In this document: positions 26,215 through 47,347 of the stretch, piece after piece
How positions within the stretch are numbered: the first letter of the stretch is position 1
Layout: each line of letters starts with the position of its first letter
From: a virus
Taxonomy: Duplodnaviria; Heunggongvirae; Uroviricota; Caudoviricetes
Reading direction: 5' to 3' (one strand)
Virus record (IMG/VR): IMGVR_UViG_2737471835_000007
Length of the DNA: 47,347 nt
Notes under the pieces: generated by a model
Told to the model about the DNA's origin: nothing
The model's input: only the letters and a program-made list of their open reading frames with translations
Database searches by the model: none
Position numbers and translations under genes: made by a program

Positions 26215-26424
26215 TTAGTCCTGATTTTTATCCACCCTGAGTAGTTCACGCAGGGCAAAGGCATCCCCTTTTCTGGCAAGCTTAAACAATGCCGCCCGTA
26301 GTTCGGCTTCACCTTTCGCTCTGCCCTTACGGATGGATGCGTAAAAATCTGTCATTGCTTCCCGATTTTCTTTCAGTCGGTTCAGATCAACATCCAGAAC
26401 GTCAGCGATTTGTTGTGCAGTCAT
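26215..26424 (-). CDS. small putative DNA-binding protein
   Basis: About 70-83 aa ORF between DxD enzyme gene and small terminase; start uncertain. Confidence 0.4.
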   Translation of the reverse strand: MTAQQIADVLDVDLNRLKENREAMTDFYASIRKGRAKGEAELRAALFKLARKGDAFALRELLRVDKNQD

Positions 26425-27334
26425 CCGGCACGCTGCCAGAGACTCGACTTTCGAATACGGAATCATTTGTCACCCCCATTGATATGCAGGGTGTCTTCTT
26501 CCTGTATTTTTCGTGAAGGATTTTTACTGCAGCGTTGTTCCAAGTGACCTGATGGTGAATGCGTTTATGGCTGGCCCCCATCAGTGAGATTTTTACGCAC
26601 GAGGGCGCATACATGACGGAGTAAAAACTTTTAACGTAGGTTCCGGAATCCAGATACAGCTCGGTCATTCCGCCGCTGTTTTTCTGCGTCTGTTTCTGCC
26701 CTAACTGGACAGCACCGATCGTCATAAACAATTCACCACAGCGACCGAGATTCGTGTACGTATTCACATCCTCGTTAATGCGCCCCATGAATGAGAACGG
26801 TCGATCAACCGAACAGATAAAGCTGTTCATTGCCTTGCGTTTCACCCACGAAGCATGGCCGCCATTGTCACCAAGAAAATCCCCGCCCTGCGACATAGCG
26901 ATGGAAAGCGCAGGTATTGATTCGTAGTACGCCAGCATTTCAGAAAGGATCGCATCCAGTTTTCTTATCGGGAAATAGGCCTGGTCATAGTTGCGATCCA
27001 CCCGAAACTGGAACTCGTGATAATCATCATCGAGCTGAATGAAGTATTTACACCCGACCAGTTTTGCCAGGTCGAAACAGGCATTACGGGCGTAAAAAAT
27101 TGAGCGGCGATCACCGAAATTATCGGCTTCGTCAAAACGACTGGCTATATCGGCTTTGGAAAACACCAGCACCTGTTCACCAAATTCAACTATGTACTGA
27201 TGCCGTGTCTTATCTTCATCATCAACAACGATAAAAATTTTCCCGGTATAGCCAGCACGACGCAACGTCCGGTAAGTCAGAACTTTGTCCGGTCGCCCGT
27301 GAGTCAGAATAAAGGCGCAAAAATCATCACGCAT
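26402..27334 (-). CDS. hypothetical enzyme with DxD-like motif (possible nucleotide-sugar transferase fold)
   Basis: Start at MRDDFCAF with GGAGGAGG ribosome-binding site; motif FIQLDDDYHEF; translationally coupled to the ParB-like gene. Confidence 0.55.
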   Translation of the reverse strand: MRDDFCAFILTHGRPDKVLTYRTLRRAGYTGKIFIVVDDEDKTRHQYIVEFGEQVLVFSKADIASRFDEADNFGDRRSIFYARNACFDLAKLVGCKYFIQLDDDYHEFQFRVDRNYDQAYFPIRKLDAILSEMLAYYESIPALSIAMSQGGDFLGDNGGHASWVKRKAMNSFICSVDRPFSFMGRINEDVNTYTNLGRCGELFMTIGAVQLGQKQTQKNSGGMTELYLDSGTYVKSFYSVMYAPSCVKISLMGASHKRIHHQVTWNNAAVKILHEKYRKKTPCISMGVTNDSVFESRVSGSVPDDCTTNR

Positions 27335-28115
27335 ATTCCTCCTCCCCGCCATGCATGATCTCCACCATGTGCTGCGTCATCCGGACAAATCCATTTTCAA
27401 TAGCCTGCTGATAATCAATGATCACCAGCGCCGACTCCTCAAAAAGGCGCTGAATTTCAGCGGGGGCGTGAGCGTAATAATCCGCAATTCTGCTGAAATT
27501 AAACACCGTGTGGCGTTCTGCCGCGCACAGGAGGAATTTTTCGATATCAGGCTCAAGGGACGCCGAACGTATCCGGCTGATCAGCTCCTGAGTTTTCGTA
27601 TCGTCGTACAGTTCACTGATATCCGGTTTATCGCCCGACGGCTCATAAACAGGCGTATCAATTTTCGTCGTATACTGCTCCTCCTCATTTCCGGTACCTG
27701 GCAAAACTTCCATCAACAGTTCATCAATTTCTGTTGGGCTGAATCCTGTCAGGGAGATATCAAAATCAGCATTGATTAGCTCCGACAGTTCCACCCGTAA
27801 CAGTTCTTCATCCCAGCCAGCGTTGAGCGGCAGGCGATTATCTGCCAGGCGGTACGCCTTTTTCTGATCATCCGTCAGGCCAGACAGAACAATGACCGGA
27901 ACAGAATCCATTTTGAGCACCTCAGCCGCCATCACGCGACCGTGACCAGCAATAATTTCGCCCTTTTCGTCAATCAGCACCGGATTGGTCCAGCCGAATT
28001 GCTTAATGCTTTCTACCAGTTGTGCCACCTGCTCAGGGCTGTGTGTCCTGGCGTTGTGCGCATACGGAGACAGTTTTTGCAACGGGCGATAGACGATCTT
28101 CAATTTCTCGCTCAT
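27327..28115 (-). CDS. ParB-like nuclease domain protein
   Basis: N-terminal ...LSPYAHNARTHSPEQVAQLVESIKQFGWTNPVLIDE...IIAGHGR matches ParB/Srx-type N-terminal domain. Confidence 0.75.
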   Translation of the reverse strand: MSEKLKIVYRPLQKLSPYAHNARTHSPEQVAQLVESIKQFGWTNPVLIDEKGEIIAGHGRVMAAEVLKMDSVPVIVLSGLTDDQKKAYRLADNRLPLNAGWDEELLRVELSELINADFDISLTGFSPTEIDELLMEVLPGTGNEEEQYTTKIDTPVYEPSGDKPDISELYDDTKTQELISRIRSASLEPDIEKFLLCAAERHTVFNFSRIADYYAHAPAEIQRLFEESALVIIDYQQAIENGFVRMTQHMVEIMHGGEEEYA

Positions 28116-28905: not shown

Positions 28906-29289
28906 TCAGCGTTTCAACTGAAAGTGAGGCCCGTCTTTCAGTGTTTTCCAGTCCCCGCCCCATTCGATGGCAGTTCCCAGCTCTGCGGCAGCCTTCTTAA
29001 ATGCCTGCGCGATTTTCTCGTACAGAGGCCAGTCCCATGACACCTGGCTGCCAACCCAGGCAACAACATCCACCGCATCACCGGTCAGGTGGCGGCTGTT
29101 CATGGTCTGGCTTTTCCCTTCCGCGACCAGCTGTTTCTGGCGTTCTTTCGTGCGCAGCCCTTCCGTAATACCGAAATCAACCTCCGTCAGCTCCAGCGCA
29201 CGGCGAACGACAGCAACCAGCTGTGGTTTAACGCCCTCCAGATTTTTTTCACTGCGACGGCTGAATCTGAATTTACCCGACATATTCAC
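28906..29289 (-). CDS. endolysin (L-alanyl-D-glutamate peptidase, M15-like)
   Basis: 127 aa with ...SRHLTGDAVDVVAW...GGDW...GPHFQL typical of small M15 peptidase endolysins. Confidence 0.8.
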   Translation of the reverse strand: MNMSGKFRFSRRSEKNLEGVKPQLVAVVRRALELTEVDFGITEGLRTKERQKQLVAEGKSQTMNSRHLTGDAVDVVAWVGSQVSWDWPLYEKIAQAFKKAAAELGTAIEWGGDWKTLKDGPHFQLKR

Positions 29290-29561
29290 CTCAACAATGG
29301 AAAGATTTTTGTGACGTTCCCGCGTGCGCGTATCACCAGCACGCAGAACAGCAGGTTAAAAAACACTTCCAGCCAGCCCGTTGCTAACGGGCGACCACAC
29401 AGATAGCTGAGGGGCGCAAAGGCATACAGCAGCATCAGCAGCCACGCCAGCCATGACATCAGCGGTTTATGTCTGGAATCACGGCGACGATAAAAAAAGA
29501 GCGTCAGCACGATAACCGTGCATAACGCTACATTCAGCAATCCGGGAAGGTTACTTAACAT
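29286..29561 (-). CDS. holin-like membrane protein
   Basis: About 91 aa, multiple TM segments, coupled to endolysin. Confidence 0.55.
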   Translation of the reverse strand: MLSNLPGLLNVALCTVIVLTLFFYRRRDSRHKPLMSWLAWLLMLLYAFAPLSYLCGRPLATGWLEVFFNLLFCVLVIRARGNVTKIFPLLR

Positions 29562-29943
29562 TGCCGCCTCCTCCACCCCGCAGACGGGAGAACAGGCCGG
29601 ACACCAGTGATGCAATATCCTGCTGGTGGATGAACGAGAGAATCTTCACCGACACCACTGACACCAGCACTGCACACAGTGCGTCGACAGGCGCACCGTC
29701 AAACCCTGTATGCTTTACCAGCCAGGATGCCAGAACCTCTGCGCCCAGCACGCCGATAATGAACGACACCAGAAAATGCGCCGCCACACGCCAGGCTGAA
29801 AGCGCCTGCGGCATCGTTGCCACAAATAACGCCCCGGCGAACGCACCAAACACAATCCCGAAATCCGTTCCGGTAAACAGCCCGAATACCGTCGCCCCGC
29901 CGAGCGCCACAGCCGTACCGGAACCGGATAAGGGTTCAGACAT
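29551..29943 (-). CDS. holin-like membrane protein
   Basis: About 130 aa from MSEPLSGSG with GGGAGG ribosome-binding site; Gly/Ala-rich TM segments. Confidence 0.55.
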   Translation of the reverse strand: MSEPLSGSGTAVALGGATVFGLFTGTDFGIVFGAFAGALFVATMPQALSAWRVAAHFLVSFIIGVLGAEVLASWLVKHTGFDGAPVDALCAVLVSVVSVKILSFIHQQDIASLVSGLFSRLRGGGGGNVK

Positions 29944-30118
29944 GCTTTTTCCTCCCACAAATAAAAAAGGGCCTCCAGCGGCCCGTAAAAACACCCTGTC
30001 AAAGGCACCCGCAGATGCCTTTTGTGTGGTGTTATCTGATGTGATGTGCGCCGGGCGCGGCGCGGATATGAAAAAGGCCCGCCGCAGCGAGCCTGTTTTC
30101 AATGAGTGCAAAATTCAA

Positions 30119-30862
30119 TTATTCTTGAGTAACACTTAAACTCATCTCATTGAATGCAGCCATCCTGTAACCTGCCGGTGTAACACCAAAATAACTCCTG
30201 AATACGCTGATAAAATAAGATGTAAAATTATAGCCGCACTGAGCAGCGATTCTGTTGATGGCGCAACGAGATTGATTCAACAGCATTGCTGCCATTCTCA
30301 TTCTCTCTGTAAGCAACAACTCACTGAAACAGGTGCCTTCTTCTTTCAGTCTTTTTTTTAACAAACTTTCACTGATACATAACCGCGAAGACACATCTCT
30401 CAGAGTCCAGTTTGCTGCAATGTCCGTACGAAACAATGCACTAAGCCTGTCACTAATATTGCTAATACACGCGGTCAGAAACGACGAAAACATCTTCTCT
30501 GATGAGAAAAACGCCAGACACGAAAAGGAAAGCATTTCCGCTAAATTGTCCGTATGAATCTTTTCCTCACAAAGATAATCAATCAGGATGCCCATCAATT
30601 CTGCCTTCGGAAAACTCACGCAAAGATATCGTGGTATTTGCCGGACTAAAACTACATCCTGTTTTTCGTCTCCACACAACAGGTAACGGCTAATTGTCGA
30701 TTCACTGAGACTTATTCGCCGAAAACATTCCGAAAAGGGCAATAACGATCCAGCTCCCCCCCTGACAAGAAGTGCACTACCACTTTCAAGAGAGAGCTCT
30801 TTTCCTTCAAAGAGCACAACAAACGGGGAATGAACAAAAACAACAGAACAGGCTTCATTCAT
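30119..30862 (-). CDS. AraC-family transcriptional regulator, AppY-like
   Basis: 247 aa from MNEACSVVF; C-terminal AraC HTH ...WTLRDVSSRLCISESLLKKRLKEEGTCFSELLLTERMRMAAMLL...QCGYNFTSYFISVFRSYFGVTP resembles AppY as recalled. Confidence 0.8.
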   Translation of the reverse strand: MNEACSVVFVHSPFVVLFEGKELSLESGSALLVRGGAGSLLPFSECFRRISLSESTISRYLLCGDEKQDVVLVRQIPRYLCVSFPKAELMGILIDYLCEEKIHTDNLAEMLSFSCLAFFSSEKMFSSFLTACISNISDRLSALFRTDIAANWTLRDVSSRLCISESLLKKRLKEEGTCFSELLLTERMRMAAMLLNQSRCAINRIAAQCGYNFTSYFISVFRSYFGVTPAGYRMAAFNEMSLSVTQE

Positions 30863-30982
30863 ATCAATTGCCCTGACATTACTGGTCACAAGATAAGTAT
30901 ATATCGATTTACAAAAATACAAGCCGAAAGACCAGTATTCGCAACCACCAGCACGTTTTATGTTCTCTGCCGTTTTTCGGAC

Positions 30983-31008
30983 ATAAAAAACCCGCTCAAT
31001 GGCGGGTT
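30983..31008 (-). terminator. tR'-like intrinsic terminator downstream of Q
   Basis: Minus strand AACCCGC-CATTGA-GCGGGTT followed by TTTTTAT, between Q-like gene and the AppY-like gene. Confidence 0.6.
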
Positions 31009-31091
31009 GTATCAAAGTTCATGCGCTTGGTTCACCTCGCGATACAGCTTTGCGAAGCTTAGCAAAATTGAAGCGGTTTATGCGTAAAAAA

Positions 31092-31634
31092 TCAAGCCGT
31101 TTTTTGAGCGAATGATTCTCGCATAGGAATGTATAGCGCATACTCAGCAACGGCCAACCAATTAGCAATTCGCTTTTCGCATGTGCTAAAACACCACTCT
31201 GGGTGTGCATCATTTAGCAATTCAGCCATTTTGCGTTTGGTCATCCCCCGCCCCTCATACCGTTGACGAAGGACGCTAATCAATCCTGGATGCTCTGCCA
31301 GCACCTCACTTATGACCCGATCAATACATAACGCCTCTGCATCAGTACAATGCGCCAGCCAGCTCTTTTGCTTACCGTTAATCATATCCCGCAAAAAAGC
31401 CTCAAGTTCAGACTTGTTCAGACCTGCTTTTTTCATCCTCCGGAGCGCCTCGTTAATTGCCGTTTTTGTCAGCTTTTTAGAGGCCAACAACTGGTTGAAC
31501 ATATTCCCCGTCTTACCGCCGCCAATATACGACCAGCGCCCCCACATGCGCAGTTTTCCCTGAATCCAGACACTTTCCAGCGTGGTGAGACGAAGGTGTT
31601 CCCCGCTTTTGCCTGTATTTGTTGGGTAAATCAT
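31092..31634 (-). CDS. putative late antiterminator Q
   Basis: About 180 aa from MIYPTNTG; position at end of nin-like cluster and upstream of terminator and lysis genes. Confidence 0.5.
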   Translation of the reverse strand: MIYPTNTGKSGEHLRLTTLESVWIQGKLRMWGRWSYIGGGKTGNMFNQLLASKKLTKTAINEALRRMKKAGLNKSELEAFLRDMINGKQKSWLAHCTDAEALCIDRVISEVLAEHPGLISVLRQRYEGRGMTKRKMAELLNDAHPEWCFSTCEKRIANWLAVAEYALYIPMRESFAQKTA

Positions 31635-31921
31635 AAATAACCTTCCTTTCTCCAGATTTCTTGCGTGCGAAAAACACCTTCTGCATGCATCAGGCGTAAT
31701 TCTTCTTTGGTGTAATCGCTTGTTTTTACCCGCCCGTCGATTAAATCGTGGCACGAGCTACAGGCAATCGCTGCCTGCATATCGTGTGGCTTTATCGCCG
31801 TTCCGCACGTTCCCGCCAACCTGTAATGCGCCAGCACAGAAGTTTCGGGATTGTGATTGCAGTAGCCAGGGATTCTGACCTGGCACATCTGGCCCCGCGC
31901 CGCTTTACGTAAATCCACCAT
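31631..31921 (-). CDS. DUF1364-like protein (YbcO-like)
   Basis: 96 aa, Cys/His-rich (CQVRIPGYCNHNPETSVLAHYR...CSSCHD); typical nin-region gene. Confidence 0.55.
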   Translation of the reverse strand: MVDLRKAARGQMCQVRIPGYCNHNPETSVLAHYRLAGTCGTAIKPHDMQAAIACSSCHDLIDGRVKTSDYTKEELRLMHAEGVFRTQEIWRKEGYL

Positions 31922-32520: not shown

Positions 32521-32793
32521 TTCTCAATCTCTCGATGGCGCAGTGCAGCAGATGCCAGTTGTTCAGGCTGACGAATGAAGTATAAATAAACTGGCTCCAG
32601 TGTAAAGCCCCCACATTGATGGAATAAAAACCAAACAACAGATTGCTGGGATAAAAACAACGCTTATTATTAAAAGCGGTTAAACAAATTAAATTTTAAT
32701 GTTATGCAAATCTACCAGATCACCATAATATCTCATTTGAAAACCACTGAAATAACAACCCTATCAGGATTAATCATATTAAGGTGAGTAAAT

Positions 32794-32880
32794 ATGGAAA
32801 ACAACAAATCTGCACATTACGCTCCTTTTTTATCTGTAATACTTTTTGTTTTATGCTGTGCGTGGGCATTATTTTTATAA
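32794..32880 (+). CDS. small hydrophobic peptide (28 aa)
   Basis: AAGGTGAG ribosome-binding site 7 nt before ATG; MENNKSAHYAPFLSVILFVLCCAWALFL; convergent with hok. Confidence 0.35.
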   Translation: MENNKSAHYAPFLSVILFVLCCAWALFL

Positions 32881-32986
32881 AAATATTTACAGATAAAATA
32901 AACCCGCCAAAGCTGGTTAAGTGTGGGTGCGTTGAGGATGCATAATACATCAGAGGTGGCGAGGGATTTCTCCCTCGCCCGGTCTC

Positions 32987-33142
32987 TTACTCCTCAGGTT
33001 CGTAAGCTGTGAAGACAGCGACCTCCGTCTGCCCGGTTCGGATTCGTACCTCACAGAGGTCTTTCCTCGTTACCAGTGCCGTCACTATGACGGTTAAACA
33101 GATGACGATCAGGGCGATTAACATCGCCTTTTGCTGCTTCAT
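32987..33142 (-). CDS. hokD: Hok/Gef family type I toxin (HokD/RelF-like)
   Basis: 51 aa MKQQKAMLIALIVICLTVIVTALVTRKDLCEVRIRTGQTEVAVFTAYEPEE; short upstream mok-like ORF ending in CTATGA overlap. Confidence 0.85.
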   Translation of the reverse strand: MKQQKAMLIALIVICLTVIVTALVTRKDLCEVRIRTGQTEVAVFTAYEPEE

Positions 33143-33190
33143 AGCCTGCTTCTCCTTGACCTTTCGGTCCGTAAGAGGCTAATCTCTATG

Positions 33191-33664: not shown

Positions 33665-34438
33665 ATGACATCCTTTCAATTATCTTTGATTTCTCGTGAA
33701 ATTGACGGCGAAATAATACATTTACGTGCCAAAGATGGTTACATAAACGCCACATCAATGTGTAGAACTGCGGGCAAACTGCTCTCTGATTACACTAGAC
33801 TCAAAACTACTCAAGAGTTTTTTGACGAATTATCACGCGATATGGGAATTCCCATATCGGAGTTAATTCAATCATTTAAAGGTGGAAGACCTGAAAACCA
33901 AGGGACATGGGTGCATCCTGACATCGCTATTAATCTAGCGCAGTGGCTATCGCCCAAATTTGCAGTCCAGGTTTCAAGATGGGTTCGTGAATGGATGTCA
34001 GGGGAAAGAACTACAGCAGAAATGCCTGTACATTTAAAACGGTACATGGTTAATCGTAGTAGAATTCCTCACACGCACTTTTCTATTCTTAATGAACTGA
34101 CATTCAACTTGGTTGCACCTCTTGAACAAGCAGGGTACACACTCCCAGAAAAAATGGTTCCTGACATTTCACAAGGAAGAGTATTTTCACAATGGTTAAG
34201 AGATAATAGAAACGTAGAACCCAAAACATTCCCTACCTATGACCATGAATATCCCGATGGTCGCGTATACCCTGCAAGGCTGTACCCAAATGAATATTTA
34301 GCAGATTTCAAAGAACATTTTAACAATATTTGGTTGCCGCAATATGCCCCGAAATACTTCGCTGACCGGGACAAAAAGGCTCTCGCCTTGATTGAAAAAA
34401 TTATGCTACCTAACCTCGATGGCAATGAACAGTTCTAA
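33665..34438 (+). CDS. KilA-N domain protein
   Basis: N-terminal ...LRAKDGYINATSMCRTAGKLLSDYTRLKTTQEFFDEL...WVHPDIAINLAQWLSPKFAVQVSRWV is a KilA-N/APSES-type domain. Confidence 0.8.
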   Translation: MTSFQLSLISREIDGEIIHLRAKDGYINATSMCRTAGKLLSDYTRLKTTQEFFDELSRDMGIPISELIQSFKGGRPENQGTWVHPDIAINLAQWLSPKFAVQVSRWVREWMSGERTTAEMPVHLKRYMVNRSRIPHTHFSILNELTFNLVAPLEQAGYTLPEKMVPDISQGRVFSQWLRDNRNVEPKTFPTYDHEYPDGRVYPARLYPNEYLADFKEHFNNIWLPQYAPKYFADRDKKALALIEKIMLPNLDGNEQF

Positions 34439-41885: not shown

Positions 41886-44537
41886 ATGAGCACAAAACCA
41901 CTCTTCCTGTTACGGAAAGCGAAAAAATCATCCGGTGAACCTGACGTCGTCCTGTGGGCAAGCGACGATTTTGAATCGACCTGTGCCACTCTGGACTACC
42001 TGCTCGTTAAGTCAGGTAAAAAACTGAGCAGCTATTTTAAACCTGTTGCCACGAATTTTCCTGTCGTTAATGACCTTCCCCCTGAAGGTGAGATCGATTT
42101 TACCTGGAGTGAACGCTATCAACTCAGCAAAGACTCAATGACCTGGGAACTAAAACCGGGAGCAGCGCCAGACGACGTTCACCACCAGGATAATGCTCAA
42201 GAAACCAAAGAACTGGCGGGAGGCCAGGAAGAAAACGCGCAGGCAGACGCCCACGAGGATTGCCAGGATTGCGAAGTCTCTGTAGCCACTTTGCGGTTCA
42301 CACAGCGTCTTCTGCACATTTTTACGTATGCAGCCGGGGATCGGAAATACCTGCATCATGCCACCCGTGAACAACGCAAACACATTACTGCTCTTGAGAT
42401 GGATCAGGAAAACAGCTATGTCCAGAATCTGCTGTTGGCCATACGCAGCATGGCAGAACCGACAACTCTGGATAATGCCGCCCTGCTCCGCCTGACTGAT
42501 GCAATTAAGGCAGTGTTCTCTATCACGAAAAAACATCAGCCCTATGAATTTAAGAATTTCATTTCAGCCTGGCTGGATACCGAACACATTGATCGCGATC
42601 TTCTGACAAAAGAATGGCGAAAAGGAAATCGTGTTTCACGCATCACGCGCACGGCTTCCGGCGCTAATGCTGGCGGCGGGAACCTCACCGATCGCGGCGA
42701 AGGTTTCGTTCACGATCTGACGTCACTGGCGCGCGACGTAGCCACTGGCGTACTGGCTCGTTCAATGGACGTGGACATTTATAACCTTCATCCGGCACAC
42801 GCTAAACGTGTCGAGGAAATTATCGCTGAAAATAAACCACCCTTTTCTGTTTTCCGCGACAAATTCATCACCATGCCTGGTGGGCTGGATTATTCCCGCG
42901 CCATCGTGGTTGCGTCCGTAAAAGAAGCACCAATTGGGATCGAGGTCATCCCCGCACACGTCACTGAATATCTGAACAAAGTACTGACTGAAACCGATCA
43001 TGCCAACCCTGATCCGGAAATCGTGGATATTGCCTGCGGTCGCTCCTCGGCCCCGATGCCGCAGCGAGTAACAGAAGAAGGAAAACAGGACGATGAAGAA
43101 AAACCACAACCATCTGGCGCAATGGCAGATGAACAGGCAACGGCTGAAACAGTGGAACCGAATGCAACTGAACATCATCAGAACACGCAGCCGCTGGATG
43201 CTCAGTCACAGGTAAATTCTGTTGATGCGAAATATCAGGAACTGCGGGCAGAACTCCAGGAAGCCCGGAAAAACATTCCATCAAAAAATCCTGTCGATGC
43301 CGATAAATTGCTTGCTGCATCACGTGGTGAATTTGTTGACGGAATTAGCGACCCGAACGATCCGAAATGGGTTAAGGGGATCCAGACTCGCGATTCTGTG
43401 TACCAGAACCAGCCAGAAACGGAAAAAATCAGCCCGGATGCGAAACAACCTGAGCCAGTAGTGCAACAGGAACCGGAAATAGTCTGCAATGCCTGCGGTC
43501 AGACTGGCGGGGATAACTGCCCTGACTGTGGTGCGGTGATGGGCGACGCAACATACCAGGAAACATTCGGTGAAGAGAATCAGGTTGAAGCTAAGGAAAA
43601 AGATCCGGAGGAAATGGAAGGCGCTGAACATCCGCACAATGAGAATGCTGGCAGCGATCCGCATCGCGATTGCAGTGATGAAACTGGCGAAGTCGCAGAT
43701 CCCGTAATCGTAGAAGACATAGAGCCAGGTATTTATTACGGAATTTCGAATGAGAATTACCACGCGGGTCCCGGTGTCAGTAAGTCTCAGCTCGATGACA
43801 TTGCTGATACTCCGGCACTGTATTTGTGGCGTAAAAATGCCCCCGTGGACACTACAAAGACAAAAACGCTCGATTTAGGAACCGCTTTCCACTGCCGGGT
43901 ACTTGAACCGGAAGAATTCAGTAACCGCTTTATCGTAGCACCTGAATTTAACCGCCGTACAAACGCCGGAAAAGAAGAAGAGAAAGCGTTTCTGATGGAA
44001 TGCGCAAGCACAGGAAAAACGGTTATCACTGCGGAAGAAGGCCGGAAAATTGAACTCATGTATCAAAGCGTTATGGCTTTGCCGCTGGGGCAATGGCTTG
44101 TTGAAAGCGCCGGACACGCTGAATCATCAATTTACTGGGAAGATCCGGAAACAGGAATTTTGTGTCGGTGCCGTCCGGACAAAATTATTCCTGAATTTCA
44201 CTGGATCATGGACGTGAAAACCACAGCGGATATTCAACGATTCAAAACGGCTTATTACGACTACCGCTATCACGTTCAGGATGCATTCTACAGTGACGGT
44301 TATGAAGCACAGTTTGGTGTGCAGCCAACTTTCGTTTTTCTGGTTGCCAGCACAACTGTTGAATGCGGACGTTATCCGGTTGAGATTTTCATGATGGGCG
44401 AAGAAGCAAAACTGGCAGGCCAGCAGGAATATCACCGCAATCTGCGGACCCTGGCTGACTGCCTAAATACCGATGAATGGCCAGCTATTAAGACGTTATC
44501 ACTGCCCCGCTGGGCTAAGGAGTATGCAAATGACTAA
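41886..44537 (+). CDS. recE: exonuclease VIII RecE
   Basis: 883 aa; C-terminal PD-(D/E)xK exonuclease-type region; 8-nt overlap with recT start, the canonical recET arrangement. Confidence 0.85.
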
Positions 44538-45363
44538 GCAACCACCTATCGCAAAAGCCGATCTGCAAAAAACTCAGGGAAACCGTGCACCAGCAGCAGT
44601 TAACGATAAGGATGTGCTGTGCGTGATTAACAGCCCGGCAATGAAAGCGCAACTGGCAGCAGCTCTGCCACGTCACATGACAGCGGAACGCATGATCCGC
44701 ATTGCTACAACAGAAATCCGTAAAGTACCGGAACTAAGAAACTGTGACTCGACGAGTTTTATCGGTGCCATCGTACAGTGTTCACAGCTCGGACTTGAGC
44801 CAGGTAGCGCCCTCGGTCATGCATATCTGCTACCGTTCGGCAACGGAAAAGCAAAAAACGGTAAGAAGAACGTACAGCTGATCATCGGTTATCGCGGCAT
44901 GATCGACCTTGCCCGTCGATCAGGTCAAATCATCAGTCTGTCAGCTCGTGTTGTCCGTGAATGTGATGAATTCAGCTATGAACTTGGCCTTGATGAAAAA
45001 CTGGTTCATCGTCCCGGTGAAAACGAAGATGCCCCTATAACCCATGTCTATGCTGTTGCAAAACTGAAAGACGGAGGAGTGCAGTTTGAAGTCATGACCC
45101 GCAAACAGGTAGAAAAAGTTCGCGACACACACAGCAAGGCGGCAAAAAACGCAGCGTCAAAAGGGGCGTCGTCCATCTGGGATGAACACTTTGAAGACAT
45201 GGCCAAAAAGACAGTGATACGAAAACTGTTCAAGTATCTGCCGGTATCTATTGAAATCCAGCGTGCAGTATCGATGGATGGAAAAGAGGTGGAAACAATT
45301 AATCCAGACGACATATCGGTTATAGCCGGGGAATACAGTGTAATCGATAATCCAGAAGAATAA
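44530..45363 (+). CDS. recT: recombinase RecT
   Basis: Start [13 protein letters not shown]; RecT-family motifs ...[15 protein letters not shown]...[15 protein letters not shown]... Confidence 0.9.
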
Positions 45364-45407
45364 TCCAGCCCGGCGGTGTAATGCACCGCCAACGTGAGAT
45401 AGTTTTT

Positions 45408-45614
45408 ATGACAAAAACTTTGAGATATGACGATGTTAAACCATGTCCGTTTTGTGGTTGTCCATCAGTAACGGTGAAAGACATTTCAGGATATTACCGG
45501 GCAAAATGCAACGGATGCGAATCCCGAACTGGCTATGGTGGAAGTGAAAAAGAAGCGCTCGAAAGATGGAATAAACGAACCACTGAAAATATTAATGGAG
45601 GCGTTCATGTATAA
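45408..45614 (+). CDS. ralR: restriction alleviation protein Lar/RalR-like
   Basis: 68 aa from MTKTLRYDDVKPCPFCG; Cys-rich small protein directly after recT as in Rac. Confidence 0.65.
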   Translation: MTKTLRYDDVKPCPFCGCPSVTVKDISGYYRAKCNGCESRTGYGGSEKEALERWNKRTTENINGGVHV

Positions 45615-45795
45615 AATTACCGCTACAATTGAAAAGGAAGGTGGCACTCCTACTAACTGGACAAGATATTCAAAATCTAAACTAACGAAATCAGAATGCG
45701 AAAAAATGCTCTCAGGTAAAAAAGAAGCAGGCGTTTCCAGAGAGCAGAAAGTAAAACTGATAAATTTTAATTGCGAGAAACTTCAGTCCTCGTGA
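45607..45795 (+). CDS. small hypothetical protein (YdaC-like position)
   Basis: 62 aa from MYKITATIEK with GGAGG ribosome-binding site. Confidence 0.4.
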   Translation: MYKITATIEKEGGTPTNWTRYSKSKLTKSECEKMLSGKKEAGVSREQKVKLINFNCEKLQSS

Positions 45796-45894
45796 ATTGC
45801 ATTGTATTCAAATTAAAACTTCATAGCTGATTATAAATAATCAACATCAGGCGTCAATTTCAGTCTAACATTGGCGCCTGCCAGAGGTGATGCG

Positions 45895-46110
45895 ATGGCA
45901 CAAGTAATCTTTAATGAAGAGTGGATGGTTGAATACGGCCTGATGCTTCGCACTGGTCTGGGGGCCAGACAAATTGAAGCATATCGCCAGAACTGTTGGG
46001 TGGAGGGCTTCCACTTCAAACGAGTATCTCCTTTAGGTAAGCCAGACAGCAAACGAGGGATTATCTGGTACAACTATCCAAAGATAAATCAGTTTATCAA
46101 AGACTCATGA
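45895..46110 (+). CDS. xisR: excisionase
   Basis: 71 aa from [21 protein letters not shown]; immediately upstream of integrase. Confidence 0.65.
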
Positions 46111-46111
46111 T

Positions 46112-47347
46112 ATGTCTAAATTACCAACAGGTGTCGAGATTAGAGGTAGAAACATTCGCATCTGGTTCATGTTTCGAGGAAAACGATGTCGGGAAACATT
46201 AAAAGGCTGGGAGATTACAAACAGTAATATTAAAAAGGCCGGAAATTTAAGAGCGCTGATAGTTCATGAAATAAACTCCGGTGAATTTGAGTATTTAAGA
46301 CGTTTTCCCCAGTCCAGCACTGGGGCAAAAATGGTGACAACGAGAGTCATAAAAACGTTCGGGGAGCTTTGTGATATCTGGACAAAAATTAAAGAGACAG
46401 AGTTAACAACAAACACAATGAAGAAAACGAAATCACAATTAAAAACACTCAGAATAATAATTTGTGAAAGTACCCCGATATCATATATTCGTTATAGCGA
46501 TATCTTAAACTACCGGAATGAACTGCTGCATGGAGAAACGCTTTACCTGGATAATCCAAGATCCAACAAAAAAGGAAGAACCGTGCGCACAGTTGATAAC
46601 TATATCGCCCTGCTCTGTTCGCTGTTACGTTTTGCGTATCAGTCGGGATTTATATCAACCAAACCATTTGAAGGAGTAAAAAAATTACAGCGAAACAGAA
46701 TAAAGCCTGACCCGTTATCTAAAACAGAATTCAATGCATTAATGGAAAGTGAAAAAGGACAGAGCCAAAACTTGTGGAAATTTGCCGTTTACTCCGGGCT
46801 TCGTCACGGGGAACTGGCAGCTCTGGCGTGGGAGGATGTGGATTTCGAGAAGGGAATTGTGAATGTCAGAAGAAACCTGACGATACTTGATATGTTCGGT
46901 CCCCCAAAAACAAATGCCGGGATCCGGACGGTAACATTACTGCAGCCTGCTCTTGAAGCACTGAAGGAGCAATACAAACTGACCGGGCATCATCGCAAAA
47001 GCGAAATCACCTTTTATCATCGGGAGTACGGCAGAACCGAAAAGCAAAAACTGCATTTTGTTTTCATGCCAAGGGTGTGTAACGGAAAACAGAAACCTTA
47101 TTACTCGGTAAGCAGTTTGGGGGCAAGGTGGAATGCAGCAGTAAAACGTGCTGGTATTCGCCGCCGTAATCCGTACCATACGCGGCATACTTTTGCCTGC
47201 TGGCTGTTGACGGCAGGAGCGAACCCGGCATTTATAGCCAGCCAAATGGGGCATGAAACTGCGCAGATGGTGTATGAAATTTACGGTATGTGGATTGATG
47301 ACATGAACGACGAACAGATAGCCATGTTGAATGCGCGGTTATCGTAG
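46112..47347 (+). CDS. intR: tyrosine integrase (Rac IntR-like)
   Basis: 411 aa; C-terminal catalytic region with ...HTRHTFACWLLTAG...GHETAQMVYEIY; terminal gene of the prophage. Confidence 0.9.
   Translation: MSKLPTGVEIRGRNIRIWFMFRGKRCRETLKGWEITNSNIKKAGNLRALIVHEINSGEFEYLRRFPQSSTGAKMVTTRVIKTFGELCDIWTKIKETELTTNTMKKTKSQLKTLRIIICESTPISYIRYSDILNYRNELLHGETLYLDNPRSNKKGRTVRTVDNYIALLCSLLRFAYQSGFISTKPFEGVKKLQRNRIKPDPLSKTEFNALMESEKGQSQNLWKFAVYSGLRHGELAALAWEDVDFEKGIVNVRRNLTILDMFGPPKTNAGIRTVTLLQPALEALKEQYKLTGHHRKSEITFYHREYGRTEKQKLHFVFMPRVCNGKQKPYYSVSSLGARWNAAVKRAGIRRRNPYHTRHTFACWLLTAGANPAFIASQMGHETAQMVYEIYGMWIDDMNDEQIAMLNARLS

Follow-up and report, generated by a model that had tools for sequence, protein, structure and literature searches.

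An AraC-like regulator carried between the Q-like and lysis genes of a prophage and its possible role in the acid-fitness network

In Stx phages, the interval between the late antiterminator gene Q and the lysis genes is the place where stx is carried. What does it mean if a transcription factor occupies this interval, what are its relatives and on which genes would it act? This question is raised by a viral DNA of 47,347 nucleotides (Caudoviricetes; IMG/VR record IMGVR_UViG_2737471835_000007), in the following called the window, which is given as one strand as read. On its minus strand, where all genes of the Q-to-lysis part are located, an AraC/XylS-family regulator of 247 aa is encoded at 30862..30119 (744 nt). 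A first-pass annotation had described it as an AppY-like AraC regulator with a C-terminal helix-turn-helix (HTH), placed after a Q-like gene and a tR'-like terminator (30983-31008) and before the holins. Family, strand and placement were confirmed by Pfam, NCBIfam and PHROG searches, an AlphaFold2 model and a terminator scan. The explanation favored here, with moderate confidence, is that of a cargo regulator which would feed the acid-fitness network of the host and would be expressed in the lysogen as well as by Q-dependent read-through.

The regulator gene as exchangeable cargo

The gene starts with the ATG at 30862. PGAP gives the identical start (WP_001405091.1), and the protein begins with MNEACSVV, containing the x4-CSV start motif that is common to YdeO, GadW, AppY, PatE and PsrA. 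Because of this annotation and the subfamily alignment, 30862 is regarded as the true start. An open reading frame (ORF) of 298 aa with a TTG start at 31015 (31015..30119), which crosses the terminator hairpin, was rejected as an artefact. The regulator had first been assigned to the interval 30119-31092; the gene indeed lies within this interval, but 30863-31092 is non-coding.

Two Pfam models are matched by the C-terminal 80 residues, HTH_18 with 50.3 bits (cut-off 33.6) and HTH_AraC with 49.1 bits (cut-off 26.6), and the C-terminal double HTH domain of ~100 residues that defines the AraC/XylS family is present. Over its full length the regulator matches phrog_1450 (1e-56). The AlphaFold2 model, built with 59 homologues, has a mean pLDDT of 87.5 and displays an N-terminal beta-rich regulatory domain, a helical linker and a C-terminal double HTH, with seven helices in residues 136-245. 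The gene is intact and under purifying selection: between the window allele and a 91%-identical allele dN/dS is 0.25-0.31 at a dS of 0.22-0.25, and intact full-length copies are present in 65 complete E. coli genomes and at 45 IMG/VR loci. Due to this dN/dS and the intact copies in 65 genomes, it is a real gene and not a chance ORF.

From 5' to 3' on the minus strand, the order is Q, a spacer, a hairpin, a leader of 120 nt, the regulator, two hairpins, the holins and the endolysin. Terminator hairpin, leader, coding sequence (CDS) and terminator hairpin form a cassette, whose borders are seen by comparison with related loci. In the porcine enterotoxigenic E. coli (ETEC) strain ETEC4085 (L018), Q is 98.5% and the holins and M15 endolysin are 90% identical, and the place of the regulator is taken by tRNA-Thr, tRNA-Gly, a TerB-family gene and DUF3927; homology to the window ends at 30987 and resumes at ~30093-30035. 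Another locus (L017) encodes an identical Q protein, after which come tRNAs and an EssD/RrrD lysis cassette. Homology to prophages that share the regulator and have another Q begins at ~31011. The whole unit is found behind three unrelated Qs, a DUF1133 Q, an 822-nt 'antitermination protein' and a 366-nt Q-family gene (~1.7 kb away), and occurs with or without downstream tRNAs, methyltransferases and TerB. The 45 IMG/VR loci, which represent the clade at >= 75% identity, carry at least six types of Q; a Q-type gene lies upstream on the same strand in 42 of them and a holin downstream in 40. Furthermore, the G+C content of the CDS (41.9%) and the leader (41.5%) deviates from that of Q (48.4%) and of the first holin (58.8%). 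The gene is present or absent between conserved phage genes, differs in G+C content and has its own downstream terminator: it is a 'moron', a piece of prophage cargo that fills the variable slot separating Q from the lysis genes.

The Q-like gene is located at 31634..31092 (minus strand, 180 aa; PGAP CDS WP_000640136.1) and belongs to the DUF1133 family (356.5 bits in Pfam). Phage_antitermQ is matched with 26.7 bits at a cut-off of 26, phrog_753 ('anti-termination protein Q-like') with an E-value of 9.8e-80, and phage records label the protein 'antitermination protein Q'. The lysis cassette downstream of the regulator (28906..29943, minus) comprises a first holin at 29943..29551 (Phage_holin_8), a second holin at 29561..29286 (Phage_holin_3_7) and the M15 endolysin at 29283..28906 (Peptidase_M15_4), all on the minus strand and assigned by Pfam and by the PGAP annotation of an identical locus.

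The comparison with stx, which the first-pass annotation had drawn, holds for the slot, since a PsrA-like homologue occupies it in the phage phiSTEC1575-Stx2k and the window regulator is co-oriented with late transcription. Position, strand, the hairpin ~85 nt after Q and the downstream lysis genes are shared with stx and other cargo between Q and S; in sister prophages, tRNAs, TerB, DUF3927, methyltransferases and blc-ybgA fill this slot. In contrast to stx, the cargo is here a transcription factor and not a toxin, and we infer the Q-dependence of its expression. No linkage of the clade to stx was seen at the two loci from Shiga toxin-producing E. coli (STEC) that were examined, which have methyltransferase or TerB cargo downstream.

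Hairpins mark both edges of the cassette. The region 29800-31400 contains 8 terminator-like sites versus 1.8 +/- 1.2 in shuffles. The tR'-like intrinsic terminator at 31008-30983 (minus) begins ~85 nt after the stop codon of Q and consists of a stem (31008-30989; 7 bp, 5 of them G-C) followed by UUUUUU (-11.2 kcal/mol, z -2.5). Just after the regulator stop codon, a hairpin with a U-tract is found at 30094-30070 (minus; stem 30094-30075, 8 pairs, 6 of them G-C; -19.3 kcal/mol, z -3.85). None of 200 shuffles folds as well as this hairpin, it is kept in all alleles, and the flanks diverge beyond it, so that it forms the 3' end of the cassette. A second hairpin (29984-29969, minus; 5 G-C pairs, then UUUUUU; -11.6 kcal/mol) lies directly upstream of the first holin.

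In the alleles other than the most divergent one, P0005, the upstream hairpin moves together with the cassette. On the metagenome contig encoding P0005 (L030, ~60-90), a hairpin of unrelated sequence (AAACCTGTC-TGAC-GACAGGTTTTTTT) is found at the same position. Here, the structure is kept and the sequence is replaced, which argues that the structure itself matters. In addition, the hairpin and ~85 nt downstream of it (30920-31008) share 75-86% identity with a segment found ahead of a small TrmB-like ORF (L015 10199-10285, L008 3511-3603, L016 3-92). Sakai Sp4, phage phiSTEC1575-Stx2k and strain 41 all have this segment with the TrmB-family ORF, and the ORF is followed by PsrA in Sp4 or by the PsrA-like gene in the Stx2k phage. 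Judged from these alignments, hairpin and ~85 nt are a shared 5' edge of late-region cargo. An identification of hairpin and leader with the prophage small RNA (sRNA) HnrS was considered and set aside, as HnrS has been reported in Sp9, Sp10 and Sp12 and not in Sp4, the bearer of the shared element (PMC13502914).

Of 5426 complete E. coli genomes, 65 contain the clade, always on the chromosome; E. coli 1303 and A17 are among the natural lysogens. Most bearers of its >= 97% allele are isolates from cattle, buffalo, sheep-meat, farms and wildlife, and several of these are STEC, whereas the ~91% allele is found in porcine ETEC and O139:H1 strains. In a descriptive tally of host labels, Homo sapiens is given as the host for only 6 of 60 listed carrier genomes. 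The clade is livestock-associated, with carriers being mostly cattle, sheep and pig strains.

Relatives of the regulator

Among AraC/XylS proteins, a short enterobacterial subfamily can be delimited by full-length similarity including the N-terminal domain, a length of ~240-255 aa and the N-terminal x4-CSV motif. The window regulator shares length and motif with YdeO, GadW, AppY, PatE and PsrA and matches them over the full length in BLASTP (1e-35 to 1e-51); on the basis of these matches it belongs to this subfamily. The closest characterized relative by BLASTP is PatE (ECs0287) with 39% identity over 234 residues (157 bits), followed by GadW (36%, full length, 150 bits), YdeO (36.5%, full length, 145 bits) and PsrA (full-length ECs1087; 36.5%, 129 bits). 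GadX is 40% identical in its C-terminal half only (94 bits). In NCBIfam, the top model is YdeO (NF007407) with 148.3 bits over residues 2-230 versus a cut-off of 348, and the next is GadX (NF007432) with 98.5 bits for the C-terminal half only versus a cut-off of 500, so that both equivalog cut-offs are missed.

AppY, which was to be compared together with other AraC regulators according to the first-pass annotation, reached 30.5% identity and 117 bits, that is rank 14 of 15 comparators; it is neither the closest relative nor does it share the position in the prophage. The label AppY-like is therefore appropriate at the level of the subfamily but not as a specific name, with PatE, GadW, YdeO and PsrA being nearer. 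Since AppY is not a close relative, its specific regulon (hya, cbdAB-appA) should not be transferred to the window regulator. A neighbor-joining tree places the regulator loosely with the prophage-borne PatE/PsrA group and pairs AppY with GadW.

The similarity is distributed unevenly over the two domains. The N-terminal domain is 22-31% identical to that of the characterized members (AppY 22%, PsrA 28-30%). The predicted recognition helices, SESLLKKRLKE and TSYFISVFRSYFG, have 7-9 of 11 and 8-9 of 13 positions, respectively, in common with every characterized member. Using Foldseek, the modeled C-terminal domain superposes on the DNA-binding domain of GadX (crystal structure 3MKL) with an rmsd of 0.9-1.1 A at 42-44% identity, and on the MarA, SoxS and AraC domains with 2-2.7 A.

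A single-sequence, word-seeded protein search returned 16 relatives, and profile as well as exhaustive searches were needed to cover the whole subfamily. When 1.84 billion cluster representatives were searched exhaustively, an identity of >50% was reached by one cluster only and E <= 1e-30 by eight; the relatives from the profile search are essentially restricted to E. coli and a few other Enterobacteriaceae. According to these comparisons, the regulator represents a narrow clade of its own and is no orthologue of AppY, YdeO or GadX.

Two more distant relatives were observed in other surroundings. The phage vB_EcoM-Ro157c2YLVW, a P1-like Punavirus of an O157 STEC, contains a member with 33% identity adjoining bof and darB (L012, 2577-3299); therefore, the subfamily is not confined to lambdoid phages. 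On a further contig (L024, 4578-7094), a YdeO-like relative (P0014, 39% identity) is located behind an ORF of 64 aa, an arrangement reminiscent of safA-ydeO. An HdeA-family gene follows ~1.1 kb downstream of P0014 on the opposite strand, and the contig also encodes ProQ and LysR-family genes.

Of the known systems, PsrA and PsrB (z1789/z2104), with PsrA of O157:H7 Sakai being ecs1087 (PMC13502914), resemble the window regulator in subfamily (~240 aa), in being found in lambdoid prophages only, and in slot and orientation. PsrA further has the shared hairpin and ~85 nt leader at the 5' edge of the cargo and similar recognition helices. In Sakai Sp4 the order is Q, a CAAX protease, a small ORF, PsrA and the ileZ-argN-argO tRNAs, and in phage phiSTEC1575-Stx2k the PsrA-like gene lies just upstream of tRNAs and stx2k. 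On the contrary, the identity is only 36%, PsrA/PsrB form a separate clade, and the carriers found here are mostly non-O157 strains from cattle, sheep and pig. The window regulator directly follows the hairpin, whereas a small TrmB-like ORF comes before PsrA. PsrA and PsrB have been demonstrated to regulate gadE/yhiF and type III secretion; for the window regulator, this would be an extrapolation.

PatE (z0321/ECs0287, prophage CP-933H/Sp1) is likewise a prophage-encoded AraC-like activator of 247 aa. However, PatE and its copies in the phages ev099 and mEp332 are located between tail-fibre assembly genes and the integrase, adjoining an IS3 fragment, and tests of its targets, hdeA, gadE and others, are limited to PatE itself. 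Together with AppY, they occupy the other classical cargo site, which extends from the tail-fibre genes to the attachment end. AppY itself is prophage-borne (DLP12, K-12) and of the same subfamily, but differs in sequence as described above and sits after tfaX at the prophage end; an AppY-type group of ~30% identity is found at contig ends in IMG/VR. YdeO, GadW and GadX are chromosomal regulators of the acid-resistance system. YdeO provides the best curated model and GadX the DNA-binding domain that superposes at ~1 A, but both, as well as GadW, belong to the acid fitness island or the EvgAS regulon and not to a prophage.

The slot between Q and the lysis genes harbors two further clades of the subfamily. 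One is found in Lambda_ev245, ~ten sister phages and strain WP8 between blc-ybgA cargo and a class II holin, the other (P0012) directly after an Antiterm-type Q. Hence, the kind of protein, a prophage AraC-like regulator, and its placement in this slot are already known, and the clade itself is uncharacterized; its gene is an ordinary example of lysogenic conversion and does not stand for a new system. Mildly new, in a comparative sense, is that at least four clades of one subfamily recur in this slot behind a terminator hairpin. What the prophage comparison contributes is a clear definition of the cargo unit and its exchange among many Q and lysis modules, and no new mechanism.

Expression and proposed targets

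The view that the regulator acts on acid fitness is derived from its relatives. GadE and YhiF are raised by PsrA and PsrB, which in this way reduce type III secretion; PsrB and PatE bind the promoters of gadE and of hdeA (here the fragment from -132 to -45), and PsrA/PsrB as well as PatE activate gadE and hdeA (PMC10877973, PMC8565820). AppY directly activates gadE, and it also activates acid resistance (PMC10057817). Every characterized member of the subfamily, AppY included, acts on gadE and acid-resistance system 2 (AR2) (PMC10057817, PMC10877973). Because of this, the acid response, one of the functions that the first-pass annotation had taken over from AppY, is plausible for the window regulator. 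Since the recognition helices are nearly identical to those of the characterized relatives, its target is most likely the acid-fitness network; taken alone, this assignment is tentative and comes close to an even chance. The neighborhood of P0014 and an HdeA-family gene was counted as a precedent for such a function.

Mechanistically, the explanation would run as follows. In the lysogen, constitutive transcription from the late promoter would stop at the hairpin 31008-30983, which would insulate the regulator, and the regulator would be made only from a weak promoter of its own within the 120-nt leader. This promoter would probably be silenced by H-NS, dependent on the stationary phase, or both. 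Upon induction, the Q-modified polymerase would read through all three hairpins, and the regulator would become the first late gene, ahead of the holins, like stx. The protein would bind AT-rich sites via its two recognition helices, which are nearly those of YdeO, GadW, PatE and PsrA, and would most likely activate H-NS-repressed acid-fitness promoters such as gadE and hdeAB. The outcome would be a higher acid resistance and, in strains carrying the enterocyte effacement locus (LEE), a lower type III secretion. Late read-through and an own promoter, both of which had been proposed before, remain two sensible routes of expression.

For the first route, a candidate pR'-like late promoter (TTGATT-17 nt-TTCAAT) was read by eye at 31095-31067 (minus), overlapping the stop codon of Q; it agrees with the consensus at 8 of 12 positions and lies below the threshold of the promoter scan. 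Transcription from this candidate to the hairpin (window 30983-31095) would give an RNA of ~80 nt; by its position, this RNA would be comparable to the 6S RNA of lambda or to StxS, an sRNA of Stx phages. An Rfam scan of 29500-31800 at E <= 1 detected no known RNA family in the leader or the pR'-tR' unit; sub-threshold chance matches were limited to rsmX (22 bits, gathering 56) and Trp_leader (20 bits, gathering 41).

For the second route, the leader (30863..30982, minus) contains a conserved core of 34 nt (30923-30890), in which 31 of 34 columns are invariant across five alleles whose proteins are 76-100% identical. This core holds the -10-like TATACT (30901-30896) and a poor -35 element, TTGTAT (30922-30917), separated by a 15-nt spacer. 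The TATACT presumably resembles a sigma-S/sigma-70 -10 element and is taken as a lead only. A promoter of the regulator within the leader is therefore plausible.

Several points weigh against the favored explanation. The regulon would be extrapolated from relatives that are only 30-39% identical. The N-terminal domain is even less conserved, and therefore signal input and partners may differ. A scan for the sigma-70 consensus in 29800-31400 found no promoter site, the leader included, and the 65 nt upstream of the CDS are overall about as conserved as the CDS and no better; together with the poor -35 element and the short spacer, this weakens the case for an own promoter. Due to the hairpin directly upstream, the gene could be essentially silent in lysogens. 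Finally, the top full-length structural matches, Rns, CsvR and ToxT, may indicate an adhesin or virulence regulon.

An extension of the favored explanation would be that several clades of the subfamily (those of the window, of PsrA/PsrB, of Lambda_ev245/WP8 and of P0012) colonized the Q-to-lysis slot independently, and that the coupling to Q was selected, so that the regulator would serve as an induction-coupled factor for host reprogramming. This idea is speculative and rather unlikely. If true, the regulator would turn on acid-stress or anti-silencing programs in spontaneously induced cells before lysis, in parallel to the release of Stx, and the clade of the window would be a version adapted to ruminant and pig hosts.

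In one alternative, the regulator is directed at the phage: made as the first late gene and in the lytic cycle only, it would act on promoters of the phage or on host functions required in the final minutes preceding lysis, with no part to play in the lysogen. Its location immediately after a terminator hairpin that moves together with the cassette, its constant co-orientation with Q and the holins and the lack of a consensus promoter in the scan of the leader would fit to this. Nevertheless, the gene is absent from closely related prophages whose Q, holins and endolysin are the same; it is therefore dispensable for lytic growth, and no partner gene or target module is constant, as Q, lysis genes and co-cargo all vary. 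Moreover, PsrA, the homologue in the same slot, has phenotypes in uninduced lysogens (PMC10877973), and the -10-like core of the leader is conserved. A purely lytic role thus appears improbable.

The structural comparison leads to a second alternative, an Rns/CfaD/AggR/ToxT-type regulator of virulence or adhesins, which would control fimbrial or colonization genes in livestock ETEC/STEC and would possibly respond to fatty acids. The best full-length Foldseek matches are indeed Rns, CsvR and ToxT (E 5e-12 to 6e-8), whose solved full-length structures have the same two-domain build of N-terminal beta-sandwich, helical linker and double HTH. Only porcine ETEC and O139:H1 strains carry the ~91% allele, and one carrier prophage also encodes the Paa adhesin. 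On the other hand, the identity to these proteins is ~20%, the TM-score is only ~0.42 (0.42 to Rns) and the modeled domain orientation is not the same. Sequence similarity to Rns covers only residues 88-231 (E 7e-18), in contrast to the full-length matches of PatE, GadW and YdeO (1e-40 to 1e-51), and the >= 97% allele is mostly carried by ordinary isolates of bovine or environmental origin. Such a regulon is hence considered quite improbable.

A functional equivalent, that is an orthologue, of AppY, activating hya, cbdAB-appA and the anaerobiosis and phosphate-starvation targets, would be in agreement with the common subfamily, the similar length (247 versus 249 aa), the CSV motif, the similar recognition helices and the prophage origin of AppY (DLP12). 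However, AppY is the second most distant of the 15 comparators, with an N-terminal domain of only 22% identity, it falls into another part of the tree, and AppY-type genes are found at prophage ends after the tail-fibre genes and not behind Q, which makes this equivalence very unlikely. That the gene is a functionless, decaying remnant or a mis-called ORF, as a few truncated copies in the databases (P0006-P0011, 131-191 aa) and split ORFs annotated in two bovine genomes (C3, C7) might suggest, is effectively refuted by the selection and conservation data and the confident predicted fold.

Returning to the acid-fitness network, AppY, PatE, PsrA and PsrB are known to feed the acid-resistance and virulence circuits of E. 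coli, and the clade described here widens this set to livestock commensal, STEC and porcine ETEC strains. Survival of the passage through stomach or abomasum would be a plausible selective advantage in livestock hosts. If the regulator raises acid resistance, it would represent a mobile fitness or food-safety determinant.

Further features of the window

Beyond the Q-to-lysis part, a RecE-like exonuclease VIII (883 aa) and RecT are encoded on the plus strand, together with an integrase whose gene is cut off by the right end of the window (41886-47347). The window is one nearly complete lambdoid E. coli prophage in reverse, with RecE, RecT and integrase marking the early or attachment end.

In the stretch that separates the terminase small subunit from the lysis genes, a gene for a ParB_N/Srx-like protein (28115..27327, minus) directly precedes one for a TET-associated glycosyltransferase family protein (27352..26402, minus; PF20691, E 2.4e-34). 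This pair could be a DNA-modification module; a TET/JBP gene was not seen near the PF20691 gene (window 26402-28115).

Past the tail genes, at the window's left end, an ORF of 468 aa (247-1653, minus) contains YadA head repeats and a YadA membrane-anchor domain. It could be a cargo adhesin resembling trimeric autotransporters, or a tail-fibre-like protein. Finally, a very AT-rich gap (32550-33150; G+C 33-37%) holds a hokD-type toxin ORF (33142..32987), after which a KilA-N gene lies on the opposite strand (33665..34438).

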